Source: Eledone cirrhosa
Lineage: Eukaryota
DNA: 64,000 bases
Direction: 5' to 3'
Assembly (NCBI GenBank): GCA_964016885.1
Contig: OZ024740.1
Coordinates: 204,290,001 to 204,354,000, forward strand
In this document: positions 27,877 through 57,245 of the stretch, piece by piece
Layout: each line of letters opens with the position of its first letter
How positions within the stretch are numbered: position 1 is the stretch's first letter
Program-made: the position numbers and the translations under genes
Notes under the pieces: generated by a model
What the model was told of the DNA's origin: nothing
Database searches by the model: none
Seen by the model: only the letters and a program-made list of their open reading frames with translations

Positions 27877-28398
27877 TGTGTGTGTGTATGTGTGTGTGTG
27901 TGTGTGTGTGTGTGTGTGTGTGTGTGTGTGTGTGTGTGTGTGTGTGTGTGTGTGTGTGTGTGTGTGTGTGTGTGTGTGTGTGTGTGTGTGTGTGTGTGTG
28001 TGTGTGTGTGTGTGTGTGTGTGTGTGCGTGCGTGTGCGCGTGTGTGTGTGTGTGTGTGTATCCCGGGTTCAGTCGGGGGTGACCACAGTAAGTAAGGTAC
28101 TCAATACATAGTAGAGTATTTGCGATATTTAATATAGAAGGAAATCATCAGGAACGGGCTTTCCTGATGATTTCCTTCGAATGAAACAGTTCTAGTCCTG
28201 TAGAAATGTAGAAGCTATTTCTATATTAAATACTATATATATATATATGTGTGTGTGTGTGTGTGTGTGTGTGTGTGTGTGTGTGTGTGTGTGTGTGTGT
28301 GTGTGTGTGTGTGTGTGTGTGTGTGTGTGTGTGTGTGTGTGTGTGTGTGTGTGTGTGTGTGTGTGCGTGTGTGTGCGTGTGTGTGCGTGTGTGTGTGT
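27877..28398. repeat. Two long (TG)n microsatellites (27877-28059 and 28248-28398)
   Basis: Direct reading. Confidence 0.95.
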
Positions 28399-28984
28399 TA
28401 AAACAATGAAATAAAAATTCAAGTCATTAGAAATATACTTCACTGCTTTACGATCGTTTCTAGATTATGATAATACATCGTAACCATACTTCGTTATCGA
28501 TCTATGAAGGGTTAGTTACAAAATATCAGATAAGGAAAATATTTACTTACATGCATATCACTTGTCAAAAGCAATGAGAATTTTATTCAAAATAAGTAGT
28601 AAATTAGTATTAAATTGAGTTCTATTGTCTTATTTGGGGGTAGCTGAAGAACAAACCAATCAGATTGTTTTTTTCCCATATGATGTTAAGATGAAAAATA
28701 ATTCACTTTAGTTGAGGTCATGACCCTTTGAAAGGAATGGTTGATTGGTGTTAACAATAGAATTGCTATAAAGAATCTATTAGGAAAAAGAGGATTGTCA
28801 TATTGATAGTTGAATATATATATGGTATAGTGAAGTTTAAAAGGAATGTAAAAATTAAATGTTGAGTTCTGTTGTATGGAGTTTTTAGGTGAATATATAT
28901 TGAGGTCATGATCAGGAAAGATAGTATATTAAAAGATGAAAATTATAAGATAATGAAATATAGTAATACAATAATATAATATAA

Positions 28985-29170
28985 TTGTTTCTACTTTAGG
29001 CACAAGGCCAGCAATTACTCAGTACATTACTGGTACTTTATTTTATCGACCCCGAAAGGATGAAAGGCAAAGTTAACCTCGGCGGGATTTGAACTCAGAT
29101 CGTAAAGGGACGTAACTATGCTGGAAAGCATGTCCGACCCTCTGCCGATACTGCCAATTCACCGCCCTAA
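28985..29170 (-). mobile_element. SINE family 1, full length
   Basis: Reverse strand gggcggtgaattggcagtatcgg ... gagttcaaatcccgcc ... ggccttgtgcctaaagtagaaac. Confidence 0.88.
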
Positions 29171-29829
29171 TATAATATAATGTAACACAATATAGTACGG
29201 TGTGGTACATTGTACTTAGTATAATACAGCGTATGATACGCCTTAAAATACTTTCAAGTATGTTTATGTATAAATAATCAAACTCAGATAAATACATGTT
29301 GACATATAGTCAAAACGCACAAATTTCATAGATCACAAAGTGCATATACCCACATTATAGATAGAGGTTTAGGTATATTGATACTCAACTAAAAACATAC
29401 ATACGCATAAATAGATGTAAACATATACATACATCTACATATGTGCACACAATCATATACATATATATTCATATATATATATATATACATATACACACCC
29501 ATACACATATATATATATGTATGTACACACACATACATGTACACACACACATAAACACTCATACACATATACACGCATATACATATATACACACACACAC
29601 ATACACATATATATATATTCACATATCATACATACATACATAGATACATATTTACTCATGCAATTACGGGTGGTTGTGTACCTTGTTGCCCTTAGTCATT
29701 AACGCATAAATCTAAGGAAGCTAAACAATTAAAAGGCAAGAAATAAGCATGAATGCGTATAATTAGGGGCAAGGGATACTAACAAATGTTACGCCATATA
29801 GAATTATAGTGAGTTGCTATTTAGAATAT

Positions 29830-53147: not shown

Positions 53148-53194
53148 AGCTAACAGTGTTTCATCCATACCCTATGGCAGGAATCATCAGAGCC
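53148..53194 (-). ncRNA. Minimal type I hammerhead motif in the PLE terminal repeat
   Basis: ggct-CTGATGA-ttcctgccatagggtatggat-GAAAC-act-GTT-agct. Confidence 0.75.
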
Positions 53195-56100
53195 TATAAA
53201 TAAAAATATATCAAAGGTTGCAGGCTCCATCAAGCTCAGTCACCAGAAGAAAGAAAAAGGACAAGTAGGGGGTCCCAAGGCCAGCGCTATATAGAAAAAC
53301 ACAATACATGACGCACATAATGTCATAACATGTCATAAAAAAATTACATCAAAAATTTATCGCATAAATGGTGCAATAGATGATAAGGAGGTTGAGAGAG
53401 GAAAGCAAGAAATGAGTGAGAGTGTTACTCAGCATAATCAAAAAACAACAAAAAACAAAACAAAAAAAAAACAAAGCAAAGCATAGATACATCAATTCAC
53501 AAGCAGTGCAAATACTGGATGTACAGGCAGAGTATGAGAGCTTGCAAGCATGAGTCCGTGAAAAGAAAAGTTGGTTAGATGTTGTACAGCTTTACATGTA
53601 GGGTTGTCTATAGGAAGGACGGTGCACTCCAGTTATATCGCCTTGTAACAGGTCGATTTCTCCATATCATACCAACACCCTCCATCCATTGGTTCCAGTT
53701 CCAAGCGTTAGGCGATATAACACTATGTCTCCAAAACATATACCCAGAGGATTTCTCCACATAGGCAGTCTGCAATAAACACCTTAAATCTAAAATAAAG
53801 TAAAGTACGATGAGGTGAAGTAAAGTACATGTACAGCCAGCACTCCAGTGAAGAAAGTGAAAATAAGACAGGTCCGCAATATCTGCTATCTCCCAAAGTC
53901 CTCGCGTTCGGTCACGCAACCCCACGTCCCACGTGAAATACACTGTATGGCCGAGTCGGCATCGAACTAAAGTGCCATACCATATGTAAATATACCACAG
54001 TAAATGTTATTCGTGATGGCTAGTCAGTCACGTAGACAGAAAGCGTATATAGAAAACTCCGCTTACGGAATTACCTATGGCAGAGTGAAGGAAAAGCAGT
54101 TATGGTTACATTAATAAGCGGGTTTATTAGAGTGAGTGCAACATTTCTGTTGTGTGCAGATACTGTAGAATATATAGTAAACTCACGGCTAAAACTGTTA
54201 ATGACAACAATGTTGTTTACATGTCCGCCAAGTGGTTTTCGTGTAGATTACTAAATCCGGAGGTTGTAATCCTTTCACAGACGGGTATAACCCCTCCTGG
54301 GTCGACTGGAAGTCAATATCCACCGTCGCACACTGCCTTGAGTGTGGTTCTATAATTCATCATATTTGCAGCACAATTCATATTCCACAATTTCAAAAGT
54401 TACCCTCTCGCTAGTAACACACAACGGTTGTCAGAATACAAACTCAGGATGTCGTTGTGTGCTTATGAAAAGTATGGGAGGCAATTCCTGTCATAAAGGG
54501 CGGATTCATTACATATCCCCGAGACGCTTGGGGAAAATCATTTGTTCGATTCAAACCCTTCAGCGACCAATTACCCGTTCCCTCTGGGGTTTAATCGATC
54601 CTGTCGCACTTAGTCCACTCGATTTTCTCATATTGTTCACTATACTATGTTGGATCTATCTCACACCCTAAGGTCAAGGCTATCTGGACCCCAGATGCCC
54701 AAGCCATCCGCCTTATAGCTGCAGCGGAGTTTGTTGGGTTTTCGACAAACTATTTGGCTGTGCTATCAGTTAGCGCACAATGGGTATGTTTATAAACCAT
54801 ATCCCTTTGGTTAGTGTGGCTAGGTGCTTGTATAGGGTCAAACTGTGCTTGGTATAGTGAAAAGCCTTAAGTAGGTTGTACTCTATGGGTTATTGGCTTG
54901 TGGTAAAAAGATGAATTAAGGAAAAGAGGAAGAAAAAATAATAGAGAAGGGAAGAGAGAAATAAAAGAGGAGAGGAGCCTATATACACTTGAAGAGCAGT
55001 TATGATTACAGAGGAACCAGGATCAAGGGTGGCGTGGTTTTACGTAGGCCTGATAGGAGGGAGGTGTGCATGTCCTACAGCGTTAGCTAATTGGTCTAAA
55101 GTAATAGAAGGAGCTAAGATTTATGTGCGGGCAAGAAGAGAATATTTCCTATTTAACAGGTTCAGTTTGGAGTATATTATGGCGTGTGACTCAGAGAGAC
55201 AAAAGTCACAAGTCTTGCTAGGGGGTCTGTACTGCGATGATTTAGTGATAATTCTCCAATCAAGCGTGTATTGAATATTGGTGTTCTTCAGGAGGGATAT
55301 GTAACTAGCTAGGAATGTGGTATACTTAAGTCTATCATGCCTAAACGTATAGCGATGGGAGTTGTATCTAGTCTTAAAGGAGGTCGATGTAGATCCTATA
55401 TATGTTTTGGAAGAGGTCCGAGTTGTAACTTTACAAGCGTAGACAATATTGTTTATAAGGCACAGCCCCTTCAGGGGGCACTCCGCCTTTCGTCTGCAGT
55501 TACATTTGCGGTGTATGTCACTCTGCGGTACAGGAGATGGTTGGTTTTCCGTATGTCTCTGATTTGGCAACCGTACATCAGATGTGTGGATAGTACTGCT
55601 GGGTAACGCCGCATCCGGTCCATCTAGTGGCTGCGGCTGTCCCGCAGATGCAATGGTATCGAAACCCTTTCTAACTTTTCTGTTGTTCGTTAGGGCTAGG
55701 TGACGAGCTAGATTTGGAGTGGTGGAGAATGATAGCTTAACTGTGTTTTTATTAATGATGCTATGGTATTTACTACAGGGTGGGGGTCCAAGATCGAAAA
55801 GAATGCCTTTGGTATATTGGTTGATACCTCCGAGTTGTAAGGTGGATTAAAGTAGGAATTAGATCTTCATCTATTTTTTCTATTTTTCGTACTGGGGGAA
55901 GAGTTAGCACCGCGCGTAGACATCCCACCTTCTGTGGTAGAGAGAACCTTGGATGGTAACCTTACCCGGAGGGGTTCGCTGGTTTCTCTGTCATTTCTAT
56001 TGTATCTCGAGTTTCTAGCTTTTATCCTACTGTTAGTATTATTGCTACACCGAGGAGGCGTGTTAGATGGAGTCGGTTGGGGTTGGCCAGAGCCGCTTAC

Positions 56101-57198
56101 TGCACCCACGTTGTTCCTGTTTTTGTGTCTGCTTCTATTAGGCAAAACCATATTGTGCGTGATTACATTATACGGTCCGGCCCTGGTGGTTTGGGAGTTG
56201 TTAGGTATATAGTATATTTTTTCTCTAAAACCAGACTTTTCTAGTGCCTTATTATAGTACCTTGCATTAGACCTAAATGTATCCTCATTATGTGATAGTC
56301 TGCTAATCCTATTGGATACCCCTTTAATTATGGCATTTAGGACGGGTCTAGGGTGATTGGAATTGGCATCTACGTATGTGATAAGGTGAGAAGTTATTTA
56401 TTTTCCAGGTCTAGAGTTACGTCTAGAAAGTTAACCGTTTTATTATTTATGTCTATCGTTATACTAAGGTTAAAGCTTTTGAAGAATTTATGTAGGTCTT
56501 TTCTCGTCCTTTCTATATTATGTTTTTTATATTCAATAGTGAACAGGGCGTCATCACGGTACAGCCCGCCTCTGAAATGCGGGAATGTCTTATGTAGTTC
56601 ATGGAGGAGGTATAGTCCAACCAAATCAGTAACCTGTGCCGAATCGCTGGACCCCATTGTGATATCGAAGTTATTCGGCGTGTTCTTCCGGGTCCAAAGT
56701 TGCCCTCGAAGAGGATGATAGTTCTCCGGGCAGCAAGGATAATGTCAATTTGGGATCTAGTCAGGTCACTATTTTGCATAGCTAATATAAGGGCCTTATT
56801 TAGAAGGATGGGAGAGATGGAAGTGTAGTAGGAGTATGCTTGCAAGCTCTCATACTCTGTCTGTACATCCAGTATTTGCACTGCTTGTGAATTGATGTAT
56901 CTATGCTTTGCTTTGTTTTGTTTTTTGTTTGTTTTTTTTTTGTTTTTTTTTTTATCATGCTGAATAACACTCTCGCTGATTTCTTGCTTTCCTCTCTCAA
57001 CCTTCTTATCATCTATTGCACCATCTATGCGATAAATTTTTGATGTAATTTTTTATGACATGTTATGACATTATGTGCGTCATATATTGTGTGTTTTTCT
57101 ATATAGCGCTGGCCTTGGGACCCCCTACTTGTCCTTTTTCCTTGTTCTGGTGACTGAGCTTGATGGAGCCTGCAACCTTTGATATATTTTTGTTTATA

Positions 57199-57245
57199 GG
57201 CTCTGATGATTCCTGCCATAGGGTATGGATGAAACACTGTTAGCT
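57199..57245 (+). ncRNA. Identical hammerhead motif in the inverted terminal copy (sense to the SRCR pre-mRNA)
   Basis: Same sequence as 53148-53194, on the + strand. Confidence 0.75.

Follow-up and report, generated by a model that had tools for sequence, protein, structure and literature searches.

A 64,000-nucleotide stretch of the Eledone cirrhosa genome (contig OZ024740.1, positions 204,290,001 to 204,354,000, hereafter the window) carries eight type I hammerhead ribozyme motifs between 28 and 57 kb, in a region that also contains exons of an SRCR-domain gene. We conclude, with a probability of about 0.86, that these hammerheads are the 3' ends of truncated, decaying retroelements, five of them lying in recognisable Penelope-like elements (PLEs) and three likely to belong to such elements, and that the copies were likely inserted at (TA)n in the introns of the SRCR gene. 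The association of hammerheads with PLEs has already been described in animals; the families present here appear, from their sequences, to be undescribed.

The motif positions listed in an earlier sequence-only reading of this DNA were correct in all eight cases, each being the low end of a CUGAN(G)...GAA...UH type I layout on the strand given. The motifs, named by these positions, and a ninth, incomplete one are as follows (lengths in base pairs, bp, or nucleotides, nt; an arrow gives the extended helix I).

28160-28206 (+): hammerhead 28164, helix I of 4 bp, U-U closed helix II of 3 bp, helix III of 4 bp with an 8-nt loop.
30189-30231 (-): hammerhead 30189, CUGAUGG (A9G), helix I 6 bp -> ~23 bp, helix II 2 bp, GUU site at 30195.
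41503-41545 (-): hammerhead 41503, canonical core, helix I 6 bp -> ~24 bp, helix II 4 bp, GUA site at 41509.
45547-45602 (-): hammerhead 45554, minimal hammerhead ribozyme (min-HHR) type, helix II 6 bp, GAAAG/CUU, site at 45558.
45794-45843 (+): hammerhead 45794, helix I 8 bp -> ~27 bp, helix II 4 bp, GUC site at 45835.
47356-47394 (-): motif 47356, a decayed member of the 45554 family with a helix I of 4 bp and a core that is shortened after CUGAUG.
53148-53194 (-): hammerhead 53148, canonical core, helix I 4 bp, U-U closed helix II, GUU site at 53152.
57199-57245 (+): hammerhead 57199, identical to 53148, in an inverted arm.
45293-45308 (-): ninth hammerhead, 3' half only, cut at the (TA)n where the next element begins.

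The core CUGANGA, GAAA, UH is present in 28164, 41503, 45554, 53148 and 57199 and is broken in 30189 (G9), 45794 (G15.1, private to this copy) and 47356 (a deletion of about 2-3 nt). Three helices with an open-ended helix I are formed by 28164, 30189, 41503, 45794, 53148 and 57199, and are weak in 45554 and 47356. The motif at 28164 had been described as partial; its layout is complete, with all three helices and a predicted GUA cleavage site at 28202.

Descriptor searches confirmed that the motifs exceed the number expected in sequence of this composition. For the whole window, a strict, a relaxed and a loosest descriptor gave 4, 6 and 9 matches, as compared to means of 0.04 (maximum 1), 0.19 (maximum 2) and 1.36 (maximum 5) in 100 local dinucleotide shuffles. 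A second descriptor with a shorter helix III limit, applied to 28100-57300 in four settings with 500 shuffles, gave 3, 4, 5 and 6 matches against 0.004, 0.066, 0.030 and 0.166 in the shuffles, with the observed count reached by 0 of 500 shuffles in every setting; it found no match in the reversed sequence and none in 1-28099. This descriptor misses 28164 owing to its limit on the helix III loop, and 47356 passes no descriptor setting. Searches with Rfam at the gathering score returned tRNA only and none of the eight motifs, and at E up to 10 over 27500-64000 returned 140 matches and no ribozyme; an Rfam score does not, however, define the hammerhead class, and the PLE motifs in the papers cited here came from descriptors. 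The proposal that the motifs are accidental matches in DNA rich in A+T and in repeats could point to the silence of the Rfam hammerhead models and to the yield of the loosest descriptor in shuffled sequence, but the match rates in shuffles are not similar to those observed, no shuffle reached the observed count at any setting, and thousands of related reads agree on the core at the position checked (45825). Chance is refuted by the shuffles for six of the eight motifs, the case for 45554 and 47356 coming from family and context, and we regard it as next to impossible.

Several further candidates were discarded. Matches at 32118 and 59153 appeared at the loosest setting only, lie outside the eight motifs and look like chance. 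A repeat of 93% identity (46050-46396 and 46756-47103) has CUGAUGA and GAAAC four bases apart in each copy (46226 and 46933, +); these were rejected as hammerheads, having no helix II and a GAAAC predicted to pair upstream. A metagenome scan with a short pattern from 45794 gave five loci, none similar to the window at E 1e-3, and these were put down to chance.

The link to PLEs is most directly evident from coding remnants. Reverse transcriptase (RT) and C-terminal GIY-YIG endonuclease sequence lies upstream of, and in the same sense as, 30189, 47356 (with its family copy 45554) and 53148 (with its arm 57199), in the following features.

30402-31850 (-): Hydra-type PLE frame, frameshifted and 5'-truncated, with RT motifs, thumb, CSCRKPEAC linker, GIY-YIG and terminal CPH.
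29830-30158 (-): second GIY-YIG C-terminal remnant, with CxxC and CxH (Pfam GIY-YIG E 0.017, below the cut-off).
47856-48360 (-): PLE remnant of Neptune/Nematis type, with a C-X4-C-XX-C linker.
47114-47427 (-): second copy of a PLE 3' end, 83% identical to 45319-45628 and continuous with the remnant at 47856.
45319-45745 (-): 3' end of a PLE (45319-45628) together with a short arm in inverted orientation that reaches about 45745, the palindrome lying at 45620-45688.
55121-56836 (-): Hydra-type PLE frame, frameshifted and 5'-truncated, with CNCRRKAEC linker, GIY-YIG and CxxC (Pfam GIY-YIG E 0.026, below the cut-off).
53552-55120 (-): stretch of 1.57 kb that separates the 3' arm from the endonuclease stop, with no homologue found.
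53099-53551 (-): 3' arm of the 53-57 kb element, 94% identical to 56836-57294.
56836-57294 (+): inverted 5' arm of the same element, joining the truncation point of the open reading frame (ORF) and ending in (TA)n.

The hammerhead at 30189 lies 177 nt past the stop of its Hydra-type frame, with (TA)7 67 nt after C3, and the second GIY-YIG remnant sits beyond the (TA)n that closes this element. Both RT/GIY-YIG frames have the CxCX5C linker of the Hydra clade and, as read from the translations, lack the CCHH endonuclease motif; of the CxxC and CxH that surround the conserved E and N, CxH is kept at 30402 and 29830 and lost at 55121, and CxxC is kept at 55121 and 29830 and damaged at 30402. Both frames are truncated at the 5' end, where the N-terminal RWK and DKT motifs of this clade would lie. 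Comparison by eye showed RT motifs common to both frames and to the printed Hydra proteins of PMC8557442. The remnant at 47856-48360, with 47356 located 466 nt past it, has three relatives (P0001-P0003; 36-38% identity, E 1e-23 to 9e-28); it and these relatives display the CX2-5CxxC linker and the two cysteines in the GIY-YIG core, suggesting that it is of the Neptune or Nematis clade, the two not being told apart.

Inverted arms were found at 53099-53551/56836-57294, at 45620-45745, from which the ribozyme has been deleted, and at 28137-28178. An inverted 5'-truncated copy is described for PLEs in PMC8557442, and the three arms in the window match that arrangement. The idea that such arms start at the cleavage site fits 45620-45745 within a base, but not 28137-28178, and was dropped. 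A (TA)4+ run lies within 200 nt downstream of all eight motifs, compared to 24.4% of positions. Together with the palindromic helix III described below, the RT/GIY-YIG remnants support the earlier proposal of a PLE link with dimer-type helix III.

For 53552-55120 in the 53-57 kb element, no homologue was obtained in a word-indexed search, four Pfam scans, the atlas (best 0.80) or an exhaustive phmmer search of one frame. In addition, a low-complexity in-frame insertion occupies about 55880-56190 (-) in the RT thumb. These two stretches indicate either an unusually long family or nested insertions.

A number of observations weigh against a PLE origin for all of the motifs. No ORF was found beside 28164, 41503 and 45794, where the assignment comes from layout and (TA)n ends only, and for 45554 and 47356 the nearest (TA)n lies inside the element end. 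The Pfam GIY-YIG matches are below the cut-off, and a search with the endonuclease piece 55124-55561 found no relative among longer proteins. Pairing of the flanks does not clearly exceed the shuffle level for 45554 (119/300), 53148 (32/300) and 57199 (17/300). Finally, the insertion at 53-57 kb is 4.2 kb long though truncated, with the ribozyme 1.9 kb past the stop, whereas described Hydra elements are generally short, under 3 kb (PMC8557442), a size that the 30 kb element fits; on account of this length we apply to the larger element only the provisional, sequence-based label "Hydra-type".

The relatedness of the motifs was scored for all 28 pairs of flanks with the core words masked. Three pairs were clearly related: 53190/57203 (z 55), 45591/47391 (z 11) and 41539/45802 (z 7, a value reached by 0 of 500 shuffles). 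A z of 3.7 for 45802/47391 reflects an inverted arm of the 45554/47356 family, which lies in the flank upstream of 45802. Judged from these flanks, 53148 and 57199 are two arms of one insertion, 45554 and 47356 are one family, and 41503 and 45794 are distant relatives; the latter two keep helices I-III with different letters, as far as can be seen from two sequences. Five or more unrelated families had been proposed for the seven named motifs; with three related pairs they count as four lineages, and 28164 is a fifth. The cut motif at 45293-45308 may represent a sixth lineage, and about six insertion events would explain the eight motifs.

We analyzed related sequences in reads and contigs from four runs (X1, X5, X6 and X7) of three organisms, aligned to 45210-48360 at 80% likeness. 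The 45794 and 45554-region families are abundant, with at least 116-119 contigs covering position 45825 in X1 and X6. For the ninth motif, related contigs run on into the missing 5' half with the core intact, and loose ends behind 45308 were found in 215 records of X1 and 212 of X6. Position 45825, the G of GAAG in 45794, reads A in 1736/1835 and 17370/17870 raw X7 reads and in a contig depth of 247098/247271 (X1), 25.8/25.8 (X5) and 20717/21461 (X6), a summed depth that is not a copy number. Thus, GAAG at 45794 is a mutation of this copy and not a natural variant. None of the core positions of 45554 is among the 40 of 747 differences listed, and both copies in the window have GAAAG/CUU, which is probably the family state. 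The NUH rule leaves the pair 15.2-16.2 free, and CUU alters that pair only.

The suggestion that natural core variants are sampled in this region therefore mostly fails, since GAAG is private, 47356 is a deletion, CUU changes a variable pair only and GUU is common in the Hydra table (PMC8557442 supplement), where it is the site in 10 of 26 rows; in the same table, helix II is flanked by U..U in 14 of 26 rows, and a U10.1-U11.1 mismatch is described in PMC3088659. There remains CUGAUGG at 30189, for which decay is the likelier reading since the parent frame has itself decayed. We consider it doubtful that A9G is instead the fixed natural core of this Hydra family. The rest of 30189 is intact, including the 23-bp helix I, and rare natural variants are known (PMC3088659), among them U3-A8 (PMC4209133); however, the parent ORF contains several frameshifts and stops, A9, like A15.1, is present in 26 of 26 rows of the Hydra table, and the one variant checked, GAAG, proved private. 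Literature searches on A9G and on octopus or cephalopod hammerheads returned nothing about these motifs except PMC8557442; further variants may be given in the supplements of PMC4209133 and of bioRxiv papers.

The ribozymes differ in their flanking helices. In 30189, 41503 and 45794, helix I extends to 23-27 bp within 35 nt, which was reached by 0 of 300 shuffles in each case. The helix III of 41503 is the palindrome ACUAGU, with a predicted self-dimer of -4.8 kcal/mol, and that of 53148 and 57199 is the near palindrome ACA-C-UGU (-1.6 kcal/mol); the value is -12.8 kcal/mol for 28164 and +1.4 kcal/mol, or no self-pairing, for the 45554 family. The core of 45554 has an extra U after A9 followed by G10.1-C11.1, and its helix I is damaged, with 2 bp next to the core.

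The long helix I bears on a second origin for the motifs beside which no ORF was found. It is possible, if unlikely, that 41503, 45794 and perhaps also 28164 represent single monomers of retrozyme-like, non-autonomous elements, whose long helix I would allow efficient cutting and which PLE enzymes would copy. Such elements occur in molluscs (PMC7229834), and monomers and a PLE origin are reported in the preprint bioRxiv 10.64898/2026.07.22.740005. A helix I of 24-27 bp is longer than the 4-6 bp of min-HHRs, and the family at 45740-45970 is abundant in three organisms. On the other hand, no tandem array is listed over any of the motifs in the window, the 45794 copy is 5'-truncated at 45740 in a family that extends upstream (loose ends before 45739), 41503 and 45794 end at (TA)n like PLE tails (the latter at 45977), and 30189, whose helix I is just as long, is joined to a Hydra ORF.

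Taking the motifs as tails of PLEs, we propose the following origin. PLE hammerheads are thought to process the precursor RNA of the element, as dimers and with low activity in vitro (PMC4209133 and PMC6765202). In the parent element, the literature suggests, the ribozyme would cut the precursor RNA of its element, mostly as a dimer joined by the short helix III; because reverse transcription begins at the 3' end, many of the resulting tails would be 5'-truncated, and the ribozyme would be the part that most often remains. The high local density could arise if one abundant target serves several PLE families and their insertions tend to lie side by side; PLEs do tend to insert next to each other (PMC6765202).

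The host sequence consists of six plus-strand exons from 33 kb onward, each coding for half of an SRCR domain.

33427-33584 (+): exon, second half of an SRCR-like domain, read from sequence.
48551-48690 (+): exon, first half of an SRCR domain, read from sequence.
51437-51610 (+): exon, second half of an SRCR domain, Pfam SRCR E 3.4e-10.
52549-52684 (+), borders approximate: exon, first half of an SRCR domain, read from sequence.
About 59581-59756 (+): exon, half of an SRCR domain, read from sequence.
63272-63411 (+): exon, half of an SRCR domain, read from sequence.

The region with hammerheads had been described as 30 kb of intron; the first four of these exons split it into several introns. 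A first-half SRCR exon was looked for upstream of 33427 in the window and not found, so that the position of 28164 and 30189 within an intron is only presumed.

Five of the eight motifs are antisense to the host gene, the sense ones being 28164, 45794 and 57199. According to the predicted fold, the inverted duplication 28137-28178 forms a hairpin that traps the core of 28164 (-39.7 as compared to -19.3 kcal/mol with the core open), and the helix I extension of this motif derives from the duplication. Pairing of the arms 53099-53551 and 56836-57294 gives a duplex with a predicted energy of -179 kcal/mol, whereas the local fold has -19; in a plus-strand transcript, 57199 would be expected to pair in this way. 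The copies here would thus not cut the host pre-mRNA, because five are antisense, 45794 lacks A15.1, and 28164 and 57199 are predicted to be locked in inverted-repeat duplexes. Co-option of one or more motifs to cut or regulate the SRCR pre-mRNA could be argued from 57199, which is sense to the host gene with a fully canonical core. It has, however, an identical twin in the other arm, with which it is predicted to pair, its helix III self-pairing is weak, and no partner of the same family exists on the plus strand; given also the state of 45794 and 28164, co-option is very improbable. The three sense cases cannot show selection.

A very high ribozyme density had been claimed for this genome. 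The claim stands locally, with eight motifs in 29 kb, and finds no support in the first 28 kb, which contain none; four to five canonical cores occur in 64 kb, figures that apply to a window chosen because it stood out and half of which is without motifs. At approximate genome sizes, published totals, next to which the local figures are high, correspond to one hammerhead per 100-250 kb. These totals are about 2,000 plus 1,300 in Schistosoma, 4,000 in the coelacanth and 9,000 in Xenopus (PMC4209133), and 5,000 in a mussel (PMC7229834). We hold it to be rather unlikely that the genome as a whole carries about ten times the published animal densities, that an old, high-copy lineage with long helix I (41503/45794), its core canonical in three organisms, would cut far better than minimal PLE ribozymes, and that sense copies in introns persist only if they are mutated or caught in an inverted repeat.

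The closest known systems are the Hydra-clade PLEs (Craig et al. 2021, PMC8557442), which include Hydra-1_Obim. Shared features are the CxCX5C linker and C-terminal GIY-YIG, a ribozyme near the 3' end, insertion at (TA)n with an inverted 5' copy, U..U around helix II, a very small loop closing a helix III of 3-4 bp and frequent GUU. In contrast, every motif in the window departs from all those tabulated; G9 and a far more extended helix I set 30189 apart, and the 53-57 kb element differs by an additional 1.57 kb ahead of its 3' arm and by inserted sequence in the RT thumb. The min-HHRs found in pseudo-LTRs of metazoan PLEs (Cervera and de la Pena 2014, PMC4209133) likewise fall into numerous, diverse families within one genome, most occurring singly in truncated elements and some lying near one another on opposite strands; they share with the 45554 family the extra base after A9, G10.1-C11.1 and a long helix II, and with the window in general a dimer-type helix III. 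They differ in that most motifs here keep 3-5 bp in helix III and three have a helix I above 20 bp, and the local density is about tenfold that implied by the published totals at approximate genome sizes. Non-LTR retrozymes (PMC7229834 and the bioRxiv preprint) also carry type I hammerheads in short AT-rich dispersed repeats in animals including molluscs, but consist of tandem units of 150-450 bp that each hold a hammerhead, none of which is seen at the motifs here, where five are attached to coding PLE remnants.

Other features of the window were recorded beside these elements. Only two GCGCATGCG words occur in it, at 30275-30283 (-) and 47474-47482 (+), each upstream of a hammerhead, by 58 nt in the first case and about 85 nt in the second, the two hammerheads being of unrelated PLE families; we take this word to be an NRF1-like site, and such sites are possibly internal promoters. 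A ATGCAAAT word lies 80 nt upstream of 41539 and is also present in the upstream loose end of the 45794 family. A G+C-rich repeat in three copies, 50304-50571 (+), 60231-60485 (-) and 2579-2702 (-), is likely the 5' region of an RTE-type element; its CCC-ACCUC(A/G)C-GGG hairpin and possible P1/P2 pairings are reminiscent of HDV-like ribozymes, with a P1 of 8-9 bp able to form in each of the two long copies, and neither P1.1 or P4 nor an Rfam match was seen in it. Hairpin-forming, MITE-like inverted repeats are located at 41640-41719 and 62181-62785.

The window is animal DNA rich in microsatellites, and its repeat mix resembles that given for coleoid cephalopods (PMC8967140). LINE-type retroelement frames occupy the first 25 kb. 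Three L1/Tx1-like elements with two ORFs stand head-to-tail at 3961-21340, with (AAT)n runs at their ends. An unbroken 1030-aa reverse-transcriptase frame at 21489-24581 (+) (Pfam RVT_1 E 2e-28), with a C-terminal restriction-like endonuclease pattern, is possibly a young element, presumably R4/Dong-like. A tRNA-like gene is found at 25079-25151 (+) (Rfam 62 bits), near an inverted repeat (25270-25445 and 26315-26495), and a 194-aa frame at 26810-27394 (-) has no Pfam match and looks to us like a Helitron helicase fragment.

The function of PLE hammerheads in vivo is still open according to PMC4209133 and PMC8557442, and the present analysis adds several apparently undescribed families to those known. 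The case of GAAG, which vanished once other copies were read, demonstrates that "core variants" seen in a single copy mislead. The findings would matter more if the lineage with the long helix I is fast, or if sense intronic copies are depleted genome-wide; should the genome-wide proposal of many, efficient ribozymes be true, the orientation bias in introns would provide a family-by-family measure of ribozyme activity in vivo.

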